A stretch of 64,000 nt of DNA from an uncultured Anaerolineaceae bacterium (lineage in GTDB: Bacteria > Chloroflexota > Anaerolineae > Anaerolineales > Villigracilaceae). Below the pieces are notes generated by a model. It made no database searches, had not been told where the DNA came from, and was given only the letters and a program-made list of their open reading frames with translations. Made by a program: the position numbers and the translations under genes. This document shows positions 12,662-32,667 of this stretch, piece after piece (within the stretch, counting starts at the first letter, position 1; each line of letters opens with the position of its first letter). Where the stretch lies: assembly GCA_964524485.1 (NCBI GenBank), contig CAZGFR010000004.1, positions 3,036-67,035 of the forward strand. Direction: 5' to 3'.

Positions 12662-14059
<1,398 letters not shown>

Positions 14060-23694: not shown

Positions 23695-25365
23695 CTATTT
23701 GATCAACGAACGCACCTCTTCGAGGAATTCGTCGTTGAGGAAATCGCCCTTTTGCATCAACGCCTGGATCCGCCCGCTGAGCAGGTTCTTCTCCTGCGGG
23801 GTCAGTTCCTTGGCGGTGGACACGATCACAGGGATGTTGGCGGTCTCGGGGCGGGCGCGCAGGGCGTCCATCACGGCGAAGCCGTCCATTTCGGGCATCA
23901 TCAGGTCGAGGATGACCAGGTCGGGCAACTCACGCTGGATCAACTCCAGACCCTCCTTGCCGTTGGTGGCCTCGCTGATGGTGTAATTGCCCTGCGATTG
24001 CAGGATGCGGCGGATGAGGCGGCGGGCCTCGGCGGTGTCGTCCACGATGGCCACGCGCGGGAAGCGGTCGGGGGCCACGTTGTTGAGCGCGGCCAGCAGG
24101 CCGTCCTCGGGAGTCTCCTCCTTGGGCGGCAGGACGATGTTGCGCGACCAGTTCTCGCCCAGCACGAACTGCTCGGCGGGCATGGTGTGTCCTGTGGCAT
24201 TGACCACTACCACGTCGGTCGGCTTGATGATGCCCGCGCGGATGAGTTTGAACAGACCCGCGAATGCCACAGCGGCGGCGGGTTCAGCGGAGATGCCTTC
24301 CATCTTGGCCAGCACGTGCATGGCGCGGTAGGCTTCCTCGTCTGTGACGCTCTCGAAAGCGCCCTGGGTGGCGTTGACGTATTTGCTCAGGATGTTATAT
24401 GCGCGGCCCGGGTCGCCCGTGGCCAGGGTCTCGATGTGGGTGCGGGGTGAGGTGACAGGCTCGGCGTTTTCCAGCCCGCGCTTCCAGCTGCTGACCATCG
24501 GCGCGCAGCCGTCCGCCTGGATGGGGGCCATGGCGGGCATGCGGTCGGTCAGGCCCATCTCGTTCAGTTCACGAAATCCCTTGTAGACGCCGATGGGCCC
24601 CATCCCGCCGCTGATGGCCTGGATGTACCAATCGGGCGTGCGCCACACGGGGGGCTGGTTCCCGTTGACAGACGCGGGCGGACCCAGCAGGGCGGTCAGC
24701 TGTTCGGCAATCTCAAAGGCGATGGTCTTCATCGCTTCGATGGAGGTGATGGTGCGCGCACCCATGTCGAGGTACAGGTTGCGCTGACGGGCGAACTCAG
24801 CCGCCATCTGCTTGACCTGGTCGTAGGACCCCGTCACCTTGATGACCTGGCTTCCATATAGCGCGATCTCCCGCATTTTGACGGCAGGCACCAGACTGGT
24901 GACGAATGCCCACAACTTGATGCTCGCGCGCGAGGCATAGGCCGAATAGGCGATGGCCACGTTGCCCGTGGATGCTGCCACCATTTCGGTGATGCCCGCT
25001 TCCTTGAGCGCTGCGATCGTGACCGCCGCCTGGCGGTCCTTGAAGGAGCCCGTTGGACCCTGGCGCTCGTCCTTGATGTACAGGTTGGGGCAGCCCAGCA
25101 TCATGCCCAGGTTGACGGCCTGGATGAGCGGCGTGCCGCCTTCACCTAATCGCAGGCTGGGGATGGGGTTGCGGATGGGAAGCAGCTCACGGTAGCGCCA
25201 CAGGTCGAAGGGGCGGTTCGCGATCAGGTGAGTGAAGTTTTCAGCGATGTTCTTGTAATCGTAATCCGCTTCGCGCCACTGGCTGTTACAACGCGGGCAG
25301 TGGAAGGAACTGGGATGGTATTCTGCGACATAGCCGCAGTCCATGCACTTGATGGTGAAGGTCAC
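23695..25365 (-). CDS. Threonine-synthase-like PLP enzyme (N-terminal Zn ribbon) fused to a C-terminal response-regulator receiver domain
   Basis: The Zn ribbon reads CMDCGY..CPRC. The PLP-lysine motif is GPTGSFKDRQAAV, with ASTGN and a GGMGP glycine loop. The REC domain spans aa ~437-556 (VAIVDDTAEARR..LVILDLMMPEMDG..IPVIVSTAKE..MQKGDF). The GTG start has a GGAGAA SD 9 nt upstream, and the first ribbon Cys lies upstream of the first ATG. Confidence 0.85.
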   Translation of the reverse strand: MTFTIKCMDCGYVAEYHPSSFHCPRCNSQWREADYDYKNIAENFTHLIANRPFDLWRYRELLPIRNPIPSLRLGEGGTPLIQAVNLGMMLGCPNLYIKDERQGPTGSFKDRQAAVTIAALKEAGITEMVAASTGNVAIAYSAYASRASIKLWAFVTSLVPAVKMREIALYGSQVIKVTGSYDQVKQMAAEFARQRNLYLDMGARTITSIEAMKTIAFEIAEQLTALLGPPASVNGNQPPVWRTPDWYIQAISGGMGPIGVYKGFRELNEMGLTDRMPAMAPIQADGCAPMVSSWKRGLENAEPVTSPRTHIETLATGDPGRAYNILSKYVNATQGAFESVTDEEAYRAMHVLAKMEGISAEPAAAVAFAGLFKLIRAGIIKPTDVVVVNATGHTMPAEQFVLGENWSRNIVLPPKEETPEDGLLAALNNVAPDRFPRVAIVDDTAEARRLIRRILQSQGNYTISEATNGKEGLELIQRELPDLVILDLMMPEMDGFAVMDALRARPETANIPVIVSTAKELTPQEKNLLSGRIQALMQKGDFLNDEFLEEVRSLIK

Positions 25366-25379
25366 AGAGTGTGTTTCTC

Positions 25380-28300
25380 CTAAGCCGGGCCTGGTTTAAC
25401 ACGCTGGAGGGCGTGTTCGAGACTGGTGATAAGTTCCTTCTCGCTCAATCCGCTCTTGTGGACGAATTGCTGTCCGTAGTCTTCGAGCTGCTTGCGTTGT
25501 TCGGGCGTCAGGTCACCGCTGCTGACGATGATGATGGGGATCTCGCTCAAGCCCTTGTTGGTGCGCATTTTTTCGAGGATCTTGAAGCCGTCCATGTCGG
25601 GCATGAACAGGTCGATGATCACAGCCTGGGGGGCCTGGTTGAGGATCATCTCCCAGCCCTTGGCCCCGCCCTGGGCCAGCAGCGGTTTGTAGTTGCCGTT
25701 GTCGGTGAGCATCTTGCCCATCAGGCTCAGGTCGTTGGGATTGTCGTCGATGACCAGCACTTCGCGGATGGACCCGTCGGGGTTGATGCGGTTGAGGGCC
25801 TGGACCAGGTCCTCTTCCAGGATGGGCTTGACGAGGTAGTCGGAAGCGCCCAGGCTGAATCCGCGCTCCTGTTCTTCGATGATCGAGCAGATCATCACGG
25901 GGATGTCGCGCGTTTCGGGGTTCGATTTTAACTCAGTCAACACCTGCCAGCCGTCGATGCCAGGCATCATGATGTCGAGCGTAACTGCGAAGGGCTTGAG
26001 CTCGGCCACGCGTTTGACCGCCTGCGACGGGTCGCTGAGCGGGATGACCTGGTAGCCCGAGGATTGCAGATAGCGTTCGTACAGGCTGATGACCTGCGGG
26101 TCATCGTCGATGGCCAGGACCAGCTTGCCGCCATAATCGGCAGCCTTGGGTTCGCGATAGACGGGCAGCGTGAAGAAGAAGGTGCTGCCTTTTCCGACTT
26201 CGCTCCTGAGGCCGATCTCGCCGCCGTGCATGCGGATCAGGCGCTGGCTGATGGAGAGGCCCAGGCCCGAGCCGCCCGTCTTGCGGGTGGGGGCATCGTC
26301 CACCTGGGAGAAGGGCTGGAAGAGTTTGACCTGGTCCTTTTCGGCGATGCCTGGACCCGTGTCGGTCACGCCCACGTAGATCTCGGGCTGGCCCGAGGAA
26401 TTGTTCTGGATATAGGCGTCGACCGTAATGGAGCCCTCGTCGGTGAACTTGGCTGCATTGGAGAACAGGTTGATCAGCACCTGGCGGACGCGGATCGGGT
26501 CGGCGTGTGCGTGCGGCAGGTCGGCGGGGATGTTCTTGAGCAGGCGGATCTGCTTGTCCTTGACCAGGCCCGTCGCCGTGGACATGACGCTGGCGATGAT
26601 GTCGTTCATGTTGACTTCCTCGAAGGCCAGTTCCATCTTGCCTGCTTCGATCTTGGAAAGGTCGAGGATGTCGTTGATCAGGCCGAGCAGATGCTGGCCC
26701 GAGTTATAGATGGCGGTCAGGTCGCTTTGCTGCAACTCGGTGATGGGGCCGTCGATGCCCTTGAGGATCACGCGCGAGAAACCGATGATCGAGTTGAGCG
26801 GCGTGCGCAGTTCGTGGCTCATGTTCGCCAGGAAGGTGGTCTTCAGGCGGTCGATCTCGCGCATTTCCTTCACGGCTTCCATCGAAAGTTCGTAGGAGCG
26901 CGCGTTGTCGATGGCGATGGCCACCTGGTCTGCCAGGGTTTGCAGCACGGCCACGTCGTCCTCGGTGAAGGCGTCCGTTTGCGTGGACTGGATGTCCAGC
27001 GCGCCGATGACGCGGTTCCCCACCCGCAGCGGGATGGCCGCCTCGGCGCGGGTGCCTGGCAGCAGCGGATTGGGCTTGTGCAGCGTGCTGGATTCGGTGT
27101 CGTTGACGATGAGGGGCGCACCCGACTGGGTCACCTGGCCCACGATGGACTGCGACCCGACCTGCAGGCTGTGCCGCTGAATCTTCATGGCCGCGCCCGC
27201 TTCGCCAGTGGCTTCCTGTAAATGCGCCGTGAAGCCCGTCTCTTCGACGATGAAGATCGAGGCATGATAGAAGCCGAAGCGTTCACGCACCAGGTTGACC
27301 GTGCGGTTGAACAGGGTGTTCAGGTCGAGGGTGGAGGTCACCAGGCGGGCGATGTCGGACGAGGCTGCCAGATAGGTGTTGCGACGTTTCAGGCTTTCCT
27401 CGGCCAGTTTGCGTTCGGTGATGTTGCGGGCCACCCAGAAGACTTCGTCCTCGTTCAACTTCGAGAGGGTCGCCAGGAACCAGTAGACCGTGGTCCCGAC
27501 GGGCAGGTCGTACTCGAACTGGATCTTTTCGCCCGTTTCCAGGGTCTGACGGATGAGCGCCACGAAGCGGTCGGCCGCCTCGCTGGGCAGCACCTCGTGC
27601 ATGCGTTTACCGAGCAATTCGGCGGGCGGGCGGACGAGCAGGCCAGGGTTGGTCGGCGCGATGCGGATGTAGCGCGCGTCCCCATCCACCACCAACACCA
27701 CGTCTTCCATCGAGGAGAACAGGGTGCGCAGGTCTGCTTCGGATTTGGCCAGCGCATCGCGGGCTTCGAAGCGCTCGATGGCGGCTGTCACCTGGGCGGC
27801 CAGCGGAACAAGCGCCTGGATGTGACCCTCGTTCAAACGGATCTTCGGGTCGTAGGTCTGGATGGTCATCACGCCGCGCACACCCCTTGCCGAGCGCAGG
27901 GGGATACCCAGCCAGTCCTCACCGGGCGCGCCGTCGGGGGTGACCCGTCCCTGTTGTTGGAGCTCTTCATACATCTCAGGCGTCACCAGCAGCGGGGCAG
28001 CTGTGTTGATGATGTAACTGGTCAGGCCCAGCCCGTACTTCATCGGCGGCGGAGGCGGATCTTTTTCATCCACGAAATACGGGAAGTTGATCATTCCCTC
28101 GGAAGGATCGTACAGGGCGATATAGAAATTGTCGGCGGGGGCCAGCCGTCGGGCCGCGTCATGGACGGCGCGCAACAGGTCCGTCAGGCTGGCGGCATTC
28201 AGCGCAGCTTCCGTGATTTGGGCCGTGGCGGTCTGCACCAACTGGCCGATCTTGCTCTCGGTGATGTCCTGGTTCGCGCCGAACGAGCGGACCGTGCGTC

Positions 28301-29060
28301 CCTGCGCATCCTTTTGTATGCGGAAGCGCATGGCCACGTATCCCAGCGTCCCATCGCCGAATGTGACGCGGTGTTCGAGGCCAGTGCTAAAGTTCGGGTC
28401 ACTGGTCTCGACCGACTTCTGGATCTCCATGCCCACCAGAGGGGCATCCTCGGGGTGAACGAAGCGCTCTACATAGCGCGCGGCGTTCATGGTGTAACCG
28501 CCCTCGCGTTCGGCGCTGGTGCGCATCACGTTGTAGAACTGGTCGTTGAACGTGAAGGTGTCGGTCAGGAAATCATATTCCCAGTTGGCCAGGCGCGCAA
28601 TGCGCAAAGCCTCGCTCAATTGGGCTTCGCTGGCGCTCACCTTCTGGAACAGGCGCGCGTTCTCGAGAGCCAGTGAAAGCTGGTCGGTCACCTGCTTGAC
28701 GAGCAACTGATCGTCGGAACTCCAGGTGCGGGTGCGCTCCTCGTCCACCACGTGCATGGTGGCCCAGTTGGTCTGGTCCATCTGGAAGCCGATGGAGATG
28801 CTGGGCGGTACACCCATCTCGTTGCCGTTGTCCACGACGATGGAGTCGACCTGCTGCGTGAGCATGCCCGTGGCCGCCAGGCGCGGACGCGGCGCGGGAC
28901 GGGCCGATGCGACCGCCTTCGGGTCGACGACCTGCCTGCCGCCAGCCTCACGCGGACCCTTGGACTGGCCCCGTTTTGGCTTCGATGGGGCCTCTTCGGG
29001 CTGGATCCCGTCAAAGAGCGTATCAATACGCTTGTCGATTTTCTGTTTCTTCTTTGGCAT
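25380..29060 (-). CDS. Cytoplasmic hybrid sensor histidine kinase: basic N-tail, headless GAF-like module, PAS, GAF, PAS, GAF, HisKA, HATPase, two receiver domains
   Basis: HisKA reads FLANMSHELRTPLNSIIG. HATPase reads NLFSNAAKFT, DTGPGI, GGSGLGLSI. The two REC domains read LVLAIDDDP..VTLDIMMPGIDG and VLVIDDNP..VIIDLFMPDMDG. The kinase-proximal GAF (RFGFYHASIFIVEE..LADQVAIAIDNAR) belongs to the same family as the receptor GAFs. No TM segments are visible. The start is taken at ATG 29060; the ORF-track start at 29204 is a TTG. Confidence 0.85.
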   Translation of the reverse strand: MPKKKQKIDKRIDTLFDGIQPEEAPSKPKRGQSKGPREAGGRQVVDPKAVASARPAPRPRLAATGMLTQQVDSIVVDNGNEMGVPPSISIGFQMDQTNWATMHVVDEERTRTWSSDDQLLVKQVTDQLSLALENARLFQKVSASEAQLSEALRIARLANWEYDFLTDTFTFNDQFYNVMRTSAEREGGYTMNAARYVERFVHPEDAPLVGMEIQKSVETSDPNFSTGLEHRVTFGDGTLGYVAMRFRIQKDAQGRTVRSFGANQDITESKIGQLVQTATAQITEAALNAASLTDLLRAVHDAARRLAPADNFYIALYDPSEGMINFPYFVDEKDPPPPPMKYGLGLTSYIINTAAPLLVTPEMYEELQQQGRVTPDGAPGEDWLGIPLRSARGVRGVMTIQTYDPKIRLNEGHIQALVPLAAQVTAAIERFEARDALAKSEADLRTLFSSMEDVVLVVDGDARYIRIAPTNPGLLVRPPAELLGKRMHEVLPSEAADRFVALIRQTLETGEKIQFEYDLPVGTTVYWFLATLSKLNEDEVFWVARNITERKLAEESLKRRNTYLAASSDIARLVTSTLDLNTLFNRTVNLVRERFGFYHASIFIVEETGFTAHLQEATGEAGAAMKIQRHSLQVGSQSIVGQVTQSGAPLIVNDTESSTLHKPNPLLPGTRAEAAIPLRVGNRVIGALDIQSTQTDAFTEDDVAVLQTLADQVAIAIDNARSYELSMEAVKEMREIDRLKTTFLANMSHELRTPLNSIIGFSRVILKGIDGPITELQQSDLTAIYNSGQHLLGLINDILDLSKIEAGKMELAFEEVNMNDIIASVMSTATGLVKDKQIRLLKNIPADLPHAHADPIRVRQVLINLFSNAAKFTDEGSITVDAYIQNNSSGQPEIYVGVTDTGPGIAEKDQVKLFQPFSQVDDAPTRKTGGSGLGLSISQRLIRMHGGEIGLRSEVGKGSTFFFTLPVYREPKAADYGGKLVLAIDDDPQVISLYERYLQSSGYQVIPLSDPSQAVKRVAELKPFAVTLDIMMPGIDGWQVLTELKSNPETRDIPVMICSIIEEQERGFSLGASDYLVKPILEEDLVQALNRINPDGSIREVLVIDDNPNDLSLMGKMLTDNGNYKPLLAQGGAKGWEMILNQAPQAVIIDLFMPDMDGFKILEKMRTNKGLSEIPIIIVSSGDLTPEQRKQLEDYGQQFVHKSGLSEKELITSLEHALQRVKPGPA

Positions 29061-29820
29061 ATTCCACCAGTTCCTGGGCCAGGTCACGGTATTGGACGGA
29101 GCCGCGGGTGTTGGGTCGGTATTGGGTAATGGGCAGTCCTGCGATGGGGCTTTCGCGCAGTTTGGTATCCACTTCGATGACAGTCTTGAACACGCCCTCG
29201 CCAAAGGTGCTGCGCAACTGCTCGTTGATGTTGCGATGCGTGCGGTTGCGGCGGTCGAACATCGTCACCAGGATGCGATAGGCCAGGTCGGCGTTGCTTT
29301 CCATGCGGATGCGGCGGATGAGGTTCATCATGTTACGCAGGGCGTAAGCCGAGAAATACTCCGCCTGGGTGGGGATCACCAGCAGGTTGGCCGCGCTGAG
29401 CGCGTTCATGGTGATGGCGCCCAAAGCGGGCGGGCAGTCCATCAGGATGTACTCGTATTTCATGTTGCCCGCGCTCTGGATGGAACGGCGCAGGGTGGAG
29501 ATGTACCCCGTCCGCACGGGCAGGAAGTGTTCGGCGCTTTCGATGCGCGAGTTGCACGGCACCAGGTCGAGGTTGGCGATCTCCGTCGTGCGCACGGCCG
29601 TCATCAGCGGTGTGGCTTCGATCAGCACATTGCTCGACGTGTATTCACTCTCGCCGATCTCGATGCCCAGCGCCAGCGACAGGTTGGCCTGCGGGTCGAG
29701 GTCGATCAACAGCACCTTGTGTCCCAGTTCCGCCAGGGCGGCCCCGAGCGAGAGGGTGGTGGTGGTTTTGGCCACTCCACCTTTTTCGTTTGAAATGGCG
29801 ATTGTTTTGGTCATGGTCAT
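29023..29820 (-). CDS. Orphan ParA/MinD-family (Soj-like) P-loop ATPase
   Basis: It has the deviant Walker A (ISNEKGGVAKTTTT), then LLIDLDPQANLS and a Walker B region (ILMDCPPAL). No parB or parS-like partner is seen nearby. Confidence 0.9.
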   Translation of the reverse strand: MTMTKTIAISNEKGGVAKTTTTLSLGAALAELGHKVLLIDLDPQANLSLALGIEIGESEYTSSNVLIEATPLMTAVRTTEIANLDLVPCNSRIESAEHFLPVRTGYISTLRRSIQSAGNMKYEYILMDCPPALGAITMNALSAANLLVIPTQAEYFSAYALRNMMNLIRRIRMESNADLAYRILVTMFDRRNRTHRNINEQLRSTFGEGVFKTVIEVDTKLRESPIAGLPITQYRPNTRGSVQYRDLAQELVEYAKEETENRQAY

Positions 29821-29826
29821 CTCTCA

Positions 29827-32667
29827 CTAGGATTCGGGCCGCTCCGAAACGGATTGCGGCAGGACTTCGATGCGGTTGACGCCCAGGGCGTTCTTCAACT
29901 CCTGCATCGCCAGACGGATCATTTCGTTCGGGTCATTGGTCGAGCGGATGGTCGAGGTAATCTCAGATACCTTGCGTTCACGTTCGGCGCGTCGCAGGGA
30001 GTCCTGAAGCAGGCGGGCATTTTCGAGCGCCAGCGCCAGGCGGTCGGACGCGGTCTGCACCAGCGCCACCTCCTCCTTGGCCCACTGACGGTCCTTCTGC
30101 AGCGACATCACGTTCAGCACGCCGAGCAGTTCGCCGCGCAATTTAACGGGCATGACGATGGTCGGCTGGTGCGCGTCCCCGCCGTCCGTCACAACCACTT
30201 CGCCGCGTTCCAGCGCCTGCTGCATGCTCTCGCTTTGGACGGGCTTGTTGAGCAGCCTGCCGCCGCTGATCGACTGATAATAGCCGACGCTGGCGCTCTG
30301 CTGGGCGAAGCCCTTCCACTCCTGCCGCAGATACTGGCTGTACATGCTCTGCACTTCTTCGAGGGCCTGCTGGGTGCGTTCGAACAGGCGCGCGTTCTCG
30401 ATGGCGATGGCCACCTGGTCGGCCAGGGTGCTCAACACGTTGGCGTCGTTGTCGGTGAACGCCCCGTGCTTTTCGCTTTGCACGTCCAGCACGCCGATCA
30501 CGTCGCCGCGCACAATCAGCGGCAGGGCCATTTCGGAGTGGGTGTTAGGCAGGTCTGGGTTGTTGAAGAAAGCCGAGTCCGCGCCCACGTCGAGGGCGAT
30601 GCGCGGCTTGCCCGTGTTGGCCACATACCCCACGATGCCCGTCTGGCCCACCTGCAAGCGGTGACCGCGCGCCAGCATGCGCTGTCCGCCTTCGCTGTTG
30701 GCGGCCTGCAGCACGGCATAGGTGCGGGTCGGGTCGAGCAGGAAGATGCCTGTGTGATAGAAGCCGAATTTCTCGCTCACGGTACGGGCGATGAGCGGGA
30801 GCAGCACGTCGATACGCTGTTCAGCGGAGATGGCGCGTGAGACTTCGCTGATGGTCTCCAGGTTCCTGGCGCGCTCTTCACTTTGCAGGCGCGCGATCTC
30901 CAGGTCGTAGGTTCGCTCGGCCACGCTCCGTTCCAGTCCTCTCAGCGTATCGGAAAGCTGGCTCACGGTTTGATCCATCACACTGGCAAGCGTGCCGAGC
31001 TCGTCGGAGCGCTGGATGGCGTTCCGCACCGTGAGGTCGCCTGCCTGGATGCGCTCAGCGGTTGCCGTCAGGGACTGGACCGGGGCGACCAGCATCCTTG
31101 CGGATAGATTGGCCAGAAAACCTGCGCCAACGAAAAGGATCACAAGCAACGCCGCGCCCGCGCCCAATTGGCCGAACAAAGGCTGGAGGAAAGTCTCGCC
31201 GGGTTCCACGGCAATCGCCGTCCACGGTTTGAGCTGCGTGCGCGTCAGGCTGGCCTGGTCGTCACCGGGGGAGGTGTCGTTCGTTTCGAGTTCCACAGAG
31301 AAGAAATTCGAATCAGGATTTGCCAGGCCCGCTTCCATGTCGGGCAGGTTCAGCAGGAAATTCTCCTGTGGGCCAGGCGGGAGCCTCTGGGCATCCTGGA
31401 GGTCGGCGATCTGTGTCGCGCTGAACGGGGTGGATGTCTTGTAAAGCTTGTTCTCGTTCTTCTCGTCTGCGAGGATGGTGTGGTTTTCGTCCATCAGGAG
31501 AATGTAGGCGGTGGTATCGGCCGTATTGCCCTTCACAATTAGATTCTGCAGGACGGCCGCATCATATTCGACCACCAGCACCCCCAGCAGGGTGCCGTCC
31601 TCGTCCGAGATGGGGGCGCTGAAATACAGTTCCGCCGCACCCGTCTGCGGGTCGAACAGCACGTCCGAGGCGTAGGCCTGTCGATTCGAGATGACGGACC
31701 GATAGAAGGGGGCATTCGACTCATCGGTGGAGACGTGCGCCTGTTCCTCACTGCTGTCGAAGAGACTCTTGCCCTGGGCGTCGAGGACCAGATAGGTCTT
31801 GATCTCCCTTTGTGTCGAGCCCAGCGCCAGCAGCGTCCCCTGGAGTTCTTCGGCGGTTTCCTCTCCCTTGAGGAAGCCGATCACGCTGGGCAGGGTGGCA
31901 TTGGCCTGGATGGTGTTTAGATTATCCTGGAGGAAGGTGTCTATCTGGTGGGATGCCTGTTGCGCCTTATCCTGCAAACTCTGTCTGGATTTCTGGGTAA
32001 GGATATCCTGCGTGCTCAATAAAGCGGGGACGCCGATCATCAACACGGGCACGATCAACGTGATGAGGTAGGTTGTGTTGAGCTGGGTGCGCAACGACTT
32101 GAACTCGATCTGGGTGGTCAGGTGGATGCCGAAGAACAGCACCACCGCGCCGATGACGATGATGACACCCTGTTGGATCAAAGAGGCGATCGGAAGCCGC
32201 TCGGTGAGCTGCAGTCCATATTCGAAGATGAGGGTGGCGACGCTGAACATCCCGCCGATCACCAGGGCGAGTTGCACGCCGCGCGGCGGCAGCGCCTGCA
32301 GGGCAAAGATGGCCGTGAAGACTATCGCACCCAGAGCGAAAGTGATGCCCATCCCTGAAACGAAGAGCGTAGCAACGGTAAAGGTTAAGTTGACGATGCC
32401 GATGAATATCCAGGCCGTCAGGGAGGTATTCTTCGTCCGCCAGAGCAGGATCGTGCCTATCAGGATGGCCAGGCCCAGGATGGCATTGTCGATGAACAAC
32501 CCGTAATGCTGCCAGGCGCCGCCGCTCTGCCGTAACAGGCTGAGGTAGAACAGCTCGACCAGGATCACGGCGATCACGCCCGCCACACCGAAAGTCAGCA
32601 GGGTGCGATATTGGACGATTTGCTTGCTGGCTTGTCGTCGTTCTTGAGTGGGTTCAGAAGGTTGCAT
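29827..32667 (-). CDS. Receptor paralog R8: ~7 TM + dCache-like extracytoplasmic domain + TM + HAMP + GAF + GAF-like + C-terminal GAF-head stub; no output domain
   Basis: HAMP reads AERIQAGDLTVRNAIQRSDELGTLASVM. The signalling helix reads LERSVAERTYDLE. The GAF core reads KFGFYHTGIFLLD..GHRLQVGQTGIVGYVA..PDLPNTHSEMALPL..LADQVAIAIENARLF. A second module ends in RLALALENARLL. The terminal stub reads ERERKVSEITSTIRSTNDPNEMIRLAMQELKNALGVNRIEVL. Confidence 0.8.
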   Translation of the reverse strand: MQPSEPTQERRQASKQIVQYRTLLTFGVAGVIAVILVELFYLSLLRQSGGAWQHYGLFIDNAILGLAILIGTILLWRTKNTSLTAWIFIGIVNLTFTVATLFVSGMGITFALGAIVFTAIFALQALPPRGVQLALVIGGMFSVATLIFEYGLQLTERLPIASLIQQGVIIVIGAVVLFFGIHLTTQIEFKSLRTQLNTTYLITLIVPVLMIGVPALLSTQDILTQKSRQSLQDKAQQASHQIDTFLQDNLNTIQANATLPSVIGFLKGEETAEELQGTLLALGSTQREIKTYLVLDAQGKSLFDSSEEQAHVSTDESNAPFYRSVISNRQAYASDVLFDPQTGAAELYFSAPISDEDGTLLGVLVVEYDAAVLQNLIVKGNTADTTAYILLMDENHTILADEKNENKLYKTSTPFSATQIADLQDAQRLPPGPQENFLLNLPDMEAGLANPDSNFFSVELETNDTSPGDDQASLTRTQLKPWTAIAVEPGETFLQPLFGQLGAGAALLVILFVGAGFLANLSARMLVAPVQSLTATAERIQAGDLTVRNAIQRSDELGTLASVMDQTVSQLSDTLRGLERSVAERTYDLEIARLQSEERARNLETISEVSRAISAEQRIDVLLPLIARTVSEKFGFYHTGIFLLDPTRTYAVLQAANSEGGQRMLARGHRLQVGQTGIVGYVANTGKPRIALDVGADSAFFNNPDLPNTHSEMALPLIVRGDVIGVLDVQSEKHGAFTDNDANVLSTLADQVAIAIENARLFERTQQALEEVQSMYSQYLRQEWKGFAQQSASVGYYQSISGGRLLNKPVQSESMQQALERGEVVVTDGGDAHQPTIVMPVKLRGELLGVLNVMSLQKDRQWAKEEVALVQTASDRLALALENARLLQDSLRRAERERKVSEITSTIRSTNDPNEMIRLAMQELKNALGVNRIEVLPQSVSERPES

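Follow-up and report, generated by a model that had tools for sequence, protein, structure and literature searches.

An orphan Soj-type ParA ATPase of Anaerolineae and an overlapping hybrid histidine kinase that opens with a predicted ParB-like tag

Within the DNA analysed here, a 64,000-nucleotide stretch of contig CAZGFR010000004.1 from an uncultured Anaerolineaceae bacterium (the window), a gene for a ParA-type ATPase lies between an array of membrane receptors and a soluble hybrid histidine kinase. ParA normally moves chromosomes, and ParB normally engages it through a short peptide. The kinase, encoded by the overlapping downstream gene, opens with a peptide of the ParB type that is predicted to bind ParA, and the most likely reading is therefore that the ATPase has been turned to the placing or distribution of a signalling kinase in the cell. 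Judged from their sequences, the two proteins very probably form a cognate ParA-partner pair. For the full positioning model, in which this ParA would be a dedicated cargo-handling ATPase that places or distributes the kinase along the nucleoid, we estimate a probability of about 0.55.

The ATPases of the ParA/MinD superfamily place chromosomes, plasmids, carboxysomes, flagella, chemotaxis arrays and the divisome. We know of no description of a classical two-component histidine kinase, or of output-less HAMP-GAF receptors, as their cargo. A search of the literature found no account in which a ParA is the partner of a two-component kinase or of GAF receptors, and a 2026 survey of ParA-like proteins in immunity mentions neither GAF nor Chloroflexota.

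The features of the pair are as follows.

29820..29023, minus strand: orphan Soj-type ParA ATPase, assigned by Pfam and structure matches; the maximal open reading frame (ORF) has 265 amino acids (aa), and a start at M3 gives 263 aa.
29761..29784, minus strand: deviant Walker A motif KGGVAKTT, residues 13-20, read directly; K13 is the signature lysine and K18 the catalytic lysine.
29161..29250, minus strand: basic patch R190-R191-x-R193-x-x-R196 ... K220-x-R222, equivalents of the non-specific DNA-binding residues of Soj/ParA.
29023..29060, minus strand: overlap of 38 nucleotides (nt), in two frames, of the ParA 3' end with the kinase 5' end, read directly.
25380..29060, minus strand: soluble hybrid histidine kinase, 1226 aa, in the order tag, linker, partial GAF, PAS, GAF, PAS, GAF, HisKA, HATPase_c, REC, REC.
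29001..29060, minus strand: predicted ParB-like, ParA-binding tag, kinase residues 1-20 (MPKKKQKIDKRIDTLFDGIQ), with I8, K10/R11, I12, D13, L15 and F16.

The tag lies at the very start of the kinase. The ATG at 29060..29058 is placed 38 nt inside the ParA gene, whose TGA stop codon occupies 29025..29023, as the preliminary description had proposed. Throughout the window's family the kinase ATG precedes the end of the ParA stop codon by 29-38 nt, and in the complete chromosome CP129482.1 (3.97 Mb), for which the gene calls are independent, the kinase starts 35 nt inside ParA. By this comparison of sequences ATG 29060 is the conserved kinase start. In relatives the kinase frame often opens just 1-3 codons before the conserved ATG, and the peptide must therefore be truly N-terminal. 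Across the clade of this ParA the two genes are inherited together and are probably translationally coupled.

The core of the kinase peptide (MPKKKQKIDKRIDTLF) has hydrophobic residues at positions 1, 5, 8 and 9, a basic residue within 2-4 and an acidic residue at 6. Products of the window's family open M-[PS]-K-K-..-K-[IL]-x-[KN]-R-[LI]-[DE]-x-L-F, which in the register of ParB reads (I/L)1-x-(K/N)3-R4-(L/I)5-(D/E)6-x-L8-F9. The tags found across the class follow L1-(K/R)2-x-x-L5-(E/D)6-x-L8-F9, in starts of the M..K.L(K/R)..LE.LFSD type. In a one-register alignment the ParB proteins encoded beside the Soj clade read L1-G-(K/R)3-G-L5-(D/E)6-A-L8-(I/L)9-P. The overall register of the tags, L1-x-(K/R)-x-L5-(D/E)6-x-L8-(F/I)9, agrees with LG(K/R)GL(D/E)AL(I/L) in ParB of these genomes. 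Mutagenesis of Myxococcus xanthus ParB has shown that L11, R13, L15, L18 and I19 are needed for ParA binding (PMC12462528), and the conserved positions of the tag coincide with these residues. Given the match both to the ParB register and to the mutagenised residues, the tag is best read as a ParB-derived ParA-binding motif that lacks both glycines.

We have sought the tag beside related ParA genes at the level of the class, where 20 loci were sampled. At 18 of these (ParA 43-51% identity, at least 230 bits) the next gene overlaps or abuts ParA and its product is tagged. The other two, L053 and L054, have the weakest ParA matches of the 20 (193 and 192 bits respectively) and are followed by ParB-type genes; the L053 product has the canonical ParB opening GLGRGLEALI. 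The tags of the window's family and order were used to construct a position-specific scoring matrix (PSSM), with 29,591 ATG starts of the window's genome as the null. On this matrix 15 of the 18 class-level N-termini lie above the 99th percentile of the null, and 9/18 above the 99.9th. On a matrix from the family the kinase scores 37.6 bits in its own genome, and the runner-up among 93,210 candidate starts reaches 15.6. By this measure the tag occurs once in the source genome, on the kinase and not on the receptors. The preliminary description had suggested a receptor-kinase assembly as the cargo; the kinase is indeed tagged, but the receptors of this genome are not.

A 166-aa ORF on the minus strand of contig C13, starting MDILQLIDRLEELFNE / MDILQLIDRLEELFNESKAVPF, scores 18.4 bits on a class-level PSSM and so outranks the kinase (16.0), while on the family PSSM it falls under the reporting threshold. 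Its product may be a second client or a chance match.

The body of the tagged protein varies. It is a hybrid kinase in the window's family and in f15, with 5/5 of the further genomes tested in agreement. Other tagged bodies recognised by Pfam are a dCache-HAMP-GAF receptor, a MASE11-GAF receptor, MinC and a HEAT-FGE-sulfatase protein, and GAF-only proteins and a beta-propeller-like protein were recognised by eye. Most of these partner proteins carry a low-complexity spacer after the tag, similar to that of the kinase. A constant tag on varied bodies is as expected for a portable ParA address tag.

Individual loci show further variation. At L040 (G110:C45:62431-69195) the gene after an orphan-clade ParA (NKKGGVAKTT) encodes a MinC that has the tag at its N-terminus (MAKKTLQRQLKDLFADL), and genes for a canonical MinD and a RodA-like protein follow; from its sequence this MinC would carry an address for two distinct ParA/MinD ATPases. 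Loci L038, L041, L042, L045 and L046 form one subclade in which ParA has a Pro-rich C-terminal extension of 20-40 residues, and here the partner gene begins at or after the ParA stop, with no overlap. L073 (G037) and L074 (G027) encode a third type of Anaerolineae ParA, of 33-37% identity. The downstream protein at these two loci opens MSD..(K/I)..G(R/K)G(K/R)EI(I/L)LPP, another variant of the ParB-like motif, and is not obviously a ParB.

The ATPase itself has the sequence features of a ParA. The codons 29784..29761 (AAA GGT GGA GTG GCC AAA ACC ACC) give directly the KGGVAKTT that the preliminary description had reported, and this motif together with a Soj/MinD-type fold places the protein in the ParA/MinD superfamily of deviant Walker A ATPases. 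Pfam identifies AAA_31 (1.1e-46) and CbiA (3.6e-22). The likely start is M3 (ATG 29814), giving 263 aa rather than 265 aa, because a GAGAG lies 6 nt upstream of this codon and homologues are called at 261-263 aa; the same Shine-Dalgarno-like GAGAG directly abuts ATG 29820, leaving no spacing for the first ATG. Residues were mapped via an alignment to the M. xanthus ParA structure 8RAY in 44 members of the clade of orphan ParAs that is delimited below. K13, K18, D40, D42 (Walker A') and D128 (Walker B) are invariant in all 44, and by sequence the protein is catalytically competent, with all the catalytic motifs of a ParA that forms an ATP-sandwich dimer.

The AlphaFold2 model of the ParA (mean predicted local distance difference test score 88, predicted template modelling score 0.90) was used in a Foldseek search, and matched best to Soj/ParA structures with template modelling (TM) scores of 0.89-0.93 (9A6N Soj, 8RAY ParA). 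The closest solved sequences are likewise M. xanthus ParA 8RAY and Thermus thermophilus Soj (E ~1e-41). Weaker matches in the Protein Data Bank are to archaeal MinD (1e-19 to 1e-21), bacterial MinD (~1e-7 to 1e-12) and ParF (3e-6). McdA (6NON/6NOO) matches with E ~9e-16 over residues 4-169 only, and the protein does not group with McdA. None of the NCBIfam equivalogs (RepA, ParA_partition, BcsQ, MinD, SopA, PrgP) reaches its curated cut-off; the top scores are 102.7 bits (cut-off 348) and 100.9 bits (cut-off 180).

Two regions of the ParA surface bear on how it might function. The first is the basic patch. R191, the arginine of TMxDxR, is arginine in 43/44 clade members, and K220, which aligns with M. 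xanthus ParA R238, is lysine in 37 and arginine in the remaining 7. An R238E substitution in M. xanthus ParA has been used as the ParA* reagent (PMC12462528). R190, R193, R196 and R222 are extra basic residues specific to the clade. The second is the pocket that receives the ParB peptide, where three of the six experimentally defined positions have been replaced across the clade: V116 by K/Q/R/H, L152 by A/T/P and L192 by T/S. Here the Soj clade has retained V, L and L. Replacement in the pocket while the catalytic residues are kept fits a partner site that has been retuned to another peptide and insulated from the resident ParB.

A resident Soj-ParB pair is present in the same organism. The source genome is an Anaerolineales metagenome-assembled genome (MAG) of 3.64 Mb, 94.5% complete, in which a canonical Soj (NQKGGVGKTT), 36% identical to the window ParA, is followed by ParB (MPKHTGLGKGLDALIP...) on contig C7. 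This is the sole ParB_N domain of the genome, and there is none in the window. A search of the window for the parS consensus with up to three mismatches gave two matches against 0.99 expected, none above chance; both are the same palindromic site (13670-13685) on its two strands, 15 kb away. The view of this gene as an orphan, lacking parB and parS, has thus held. On the evidence of sequence and gene context the window ParA is a second, orphan ParA, separate from the chromosomal Soj.

A maximum-likelihood tree was calculated for 74 sequences, with references that include solved Soj/ParA proteins and the genome's own Soj and MinD. All 45 clade members lie beyond one branch, with a support of 100 in the Shimodaira-Hasegawa-like approximate likelihood ratio test (SH-aLRT) and a stem length of 0.8. 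The Anaerolineae Soj proteins form a separate clade (SH-aLRT 99), and the solved Soj/ParA proteins also lie apart from the orphan clade. The preliminary description had named clustering with chromosomal Soj, together with a cognate parB elsewhere that acts on this gene, as an outcome that would overturn it; in the tree the gene does not cluster with Soj. The nearest outgroup is the ParA of L054, which is still next to a ParB-like gene. At this locus (G429:C7:13339-20094) the sister-branch ParA (39% identity) precedes a ParB-like protein with a divergent N-terminal peptide (...KPDLKSLVSGVLEAGE...), which may represent a stage intermediate between the ParB motif and the portable tag.

The clade is narrowly distributed. 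Among 40 relatives an orthologue (62-99% identity) accompanies the Soj (~35-38%) in nearly all genomes of the same family. MAGs labelled Longilinea and Bellilinea carry the clade as 55-58% homologues. In a class-wide sample 66/401 Anaerolineae genomes have a match at E <= 1e-52, patchily by family (f1 12/12, f26 13/15, f32 9/10, f35 4/4). These matches split into a block of at least 43% identity (~213 bits or more) and a weak tail of ~40% identity (180-193 bits); the tail was left out of the clade because both of its sampled members, L053 and L054, precede ParB-type genes. In a phylum-wide sample searched at E <= 1e-58 there were matches only in the window's family (24/24) and one sister family, and none of the phylum-wide genomes searched has a clade ParA outside class Anaerolineae. 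On the basis of the genomes sampled the orphan ParAs are a monophyletic, Anaerolineae-specific offshoot of Soj-type ParAs.

A few records are irregular. A 69%-identical ParA copy occurs on a 3.4-kb contig (L095, JAKEGK010000227.1) of a MAG labelled Gammaproteobacteria, and is probably a binning contaminant. At L025 (G007:C9), L032 (G039:C5) and G016:C1:251290-252058 the ParA is in 2-3 frames with the tagged downstream gene intact, which indicates either a pseudogene or an assembly frameshift.

Two further features complete the setting of the pair.

28776..29000, minus strand: flexible linker rich in Pro/Ala/Lys/Arg, kinase residues ~21-95, between the tag and the first folded domain, assigned by sequence composition.
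29827..32667, minus strand: final gene in the array of membrane dCache-HAMP-GAF sensors that lies upstream, 946 aa, with no output domain; a conserved upstream neighbour.

The stop of this last receptor gene lies 6 nt before the first ATG of the ParA ORF. The receptors of the array, eight to nine in number and all output-less, are dCache/HAMP/GAF proteins and not chemoreceptors. The position of the ParA between receptors and kinase, remarked on in the preliminary description, proves to be fixed, with the order receptor, ParA, kinase at every locus of the window's family (~26 genomes); receptor, ParA and tagged protein also follow one another in 18 of the 20 class-level loci. In CP129482.1 the order is receptors, ParA, multi-GAF kinase, PALP+REC, EamA, racemase. 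A PALP (threonine-synthase-like)+REC gene likewise follows the kinase in the window (23695-25365) and at L107 (15921-17597), and then EamA and an Asp/Glu racemase, an order kept in a complete Anaerolineae chromosome. An origin of the ParA from a plasmid or mobile element was considered and is ruled out by the equal neighbourhood in the 3.97-Mb chromosome, between housekeeping genes, in agreement with the original impression that this is not a plasmid context.

We envisage the following mechanism. ATP-bound ParA dimers would be located on the nucleoid, and the two N-terminal tags of a kinase dimer would each occupy one of the two remodelled pockets where the ParA subunits meet. The tags together with DNA would stimulate ATP hydrolysis, and repeated binding and release would tether and spread the kinase, plus any receptor-kinase complexes, over the nucleoid. 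Each cell of a filament could in this way keep a share of the single kinase that serves eight to nine receptors, and both daughters would inherit it. The remodelled pocket and the glycine-free tag would insulate the pair from the resident Soj-ParB.

Some considerations weigh against this mechanism. The binding of the tag by ParA is deduced from sequence, and DNA binding by ParA from a few conserved residues. The receptors are in the membrane, and the nucleoid is not obviously a sensible matrix for a kinase that has to meet them. The tags found on membrane receptors in other families could point to a membrane-proximal or landmark mechanism. Lastly, all the genomes that carry the system are uncultured MAGs.

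Other explanations of the pairing are possible. In one of these the ParA would be an ATP-dependent regulatory switch or scaffold, and binding of the tag would gate the dimerisation of the kinase, its activity or its access to the receptor tails. The control of FleQ by FleN/FlhG, or of DnaA by Soj, would be the model for this. The evidence for pairing is common to this explanation and to positioning, and ParA/MinD proteins with purely regulatory partners do exist, such as that in the FleQ-FleN complex, which is also among the Foldseek fold matches of the ParA model. A single kinase serving many receptors would, moreover, gain from gating. However, the kept DNA-binding patch and the clade-specific arginines are unexplained without a matrix, and an equal tag is found on MinC, an FGE enzyme and output-less receptors. 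Its presence on proteins without kinase activity suggests that the common denominator is placement rather than control of a kinase. We regard a regulatory switch as improbable, while giving it serious weight.

Alternatively the ParA could act in the manner of ParC or FlhG, marking a pole, septum or other landmark and recruiting the tagged kinase or receptors independently of the nucleoid. In other Anaerolineae families the tag is indeed found on membrane receptors, where it tips long cytoplasmic tethers rich in Pro, and in one genome it is on MinC in a minC-minD-rodA cluster, which hints at the context of the division site or pole. Yet the ParA sequence has no C-terminal amphipathic membrane-targeting helix of the MinD type. 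Its C-terminus is acidic (EYAKEETENRQAY), and those of the clade are acidic or variable. No landmark protein was identified. The residues for DNA binding have been kept, and the closest sequences and folds are those of nucleoid-binding Soj/ParA and not of MinD or FlhG. Recruitment to a landmark thus seems to us distinctly unlikely. A membrane-bound ATPase of the MinD kind was also considered, and is ruled out by the lack of the amphipathic helix and by a bona fide MinD elsewhere in the genome that has this helix and ends GLWGRLQRLTGGRK.

The basic N-terminal tail of the kinase might instead bind DNA directly, using the nucleoid as a scaffold, with the neighbouring ParA being unrelated. In the window's family the net charge of the tag is +1 to +5 and the linker is often basic, in accord with this idea. 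But tags at the class level have a net charge of -5 to +2 and yet retain the hydrophobic 1-5-8-9 spacing and the adjacency to ParA, and acidic tags argue against simple direct binding of DNA by the tail. The tag and ParA are moreover always adjacent, and usually overlapping. We consider direct DNA binding very unlikely. The preliminary description had proposed the basic N-terminal tail of the kinase as the partner of ParA; a conserved ParB-like motif is present there, but from the sequences compared it is not a net positive charge that the tag conserves. The residue at ParA position 98, which is H/Q within the window's family and K/R outside it, follows the net charge of the tag, a covariation to which we give no weight because it is probably a single change on the tree.

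Partition of a chromosome or integrated element with an unrecognised centromere partner or a distant ParB can be put aside as scarcely credible since, while Soj is the closest characterised family and the sister-branch ParA of L054 precedes a ParB-like gene, the single ParB_N of the genome is beside its own Soj, the window has no parS, the 6-nt spacer upstream and overlapping gene downstream leave no space in which a small partner could be encoded, a complete genome shows the chromosomal neighbourhood to be stable and the ParB-binding pocket residues are replaced.

Placement of the kinase along the nucleoid by its own ParA can be compared with known systems. The likeness to ParC and PpfA is by description. 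The closest in operation is PpfA-TlpT of Rhodobacter sphaeroides, which shares with the present pair an orphan ParA inside a signalling operon and a signalling protein as partner in place of ParB. In that system the nucleoid serves as matrix, and the cytoplasmic chemoreceptor cluster is nucleated by TlpT, which binds PpfA (PMC10924463). The nucleoid matrix and the spacing and inheritance of a signalling complex would be alike here; the arginine for non-specific DNA binding is kept (R191 43/44; K220 K/R 44/44), and the kinase N-terminus has in its sequence the conserved ParB-like motif, by which it might engage the ParA. By contrast, PpfA-TlpT belongs to a chemotaxis operon with methyl-accepting chemotaxis protein (MCP), CheA and CheW, and the partner here is a two-component hybrid histidine kinase. 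MCPsignal and CheW domains were sought in the 94.5%-complete genome and none was found, while control genomes gave matches. In the absence of MCP and CheW the ParA is therefore not a member of the chemotaxis-associated ParA families. The system would work like PpfA-TlpT without being a member of it, a comparison made by description and functional only. The analogy with chemotaxis operons drawn in the preliminary description is thus retained as a likeness of function and given up as a relationship, with dCache/HAMP/GAF receptors in place of chemoreceptors.

With ParABS (Soj-Spo0J) there are in common the sequence (E ~1e-41), the fold (TM ~0.9), the catalytic and DNA-binding residues and the spacing of the partner peptide. 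The differences are that no ParB or parS is adjacent, that the motif is glycine-free and on a kinase, that the pocket is remodelled and that the clade is apart from the Soj that coexists with it in every genome. ParC-ParP of Vibrio and Pseudomonas, the system of polar chemotaxis arrays, also has a ParA-family ATPase whose task is to localise a sensory kinase-receptor assembly. In PMC5706961 a CheW-like array-integration domain is described in ParP, and ParC is said to rely on a polar landmark. In contrast, there is no CheW-family domain in this genome, and no landmark is known here.

The manner in which the tag might act has precedents. As a rule the partners of ParA/MinD ATPases work by way of a disordered N-terminus (PMC10241942). 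Three papers on PomZ-PomX/PomY and McdA-McdB describe the activation of ParA/MinD ATPases by N-terminal peptides of partners that are not ParB (PMC7993993, PMC13170346, PMC12139897). A short N-terminal peptide on a partner that does not bind DNA would similarly be expected to activate the nucleoid-bound ATPase here. The cargo in those systems is a divisome regulator or the carboxysome, and the tag here differs in being ParB-derived.

If the pairing is real, it would provide a case, defined by sequence, of a ParA paralogue insulated from the resident ParABS by a remodelled pocket and a glycine-free tag, and would be evidence for the spatial organisation of non-chemotactic signalling. The combination of the tag with an overlapping ParA would then be a rule by which to find the hub protein of large multi-receptor operons in Chloroflexota. 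A broader proposal, which we put forward tentatively and think somewhat more apt to fail than to hold, is that Anaerolineae have turned ParB's ParA-binding motif into a portable tag, read by a dedicated, ParB-insulated ParA paralogue, on the hub of a sensory module. In the window's family this hub would be the single hybrid kinase; elsewhere its place would be taken by HAMP-GAF or MASE11-GAF receptors, by MinC or by an enzyme. Should this be true, it would amount to a general ParA-based sorting of proteins, organising two-component complexes spatially, as chemotaxis arrays are organised, in filamentous multicellular bacteria.

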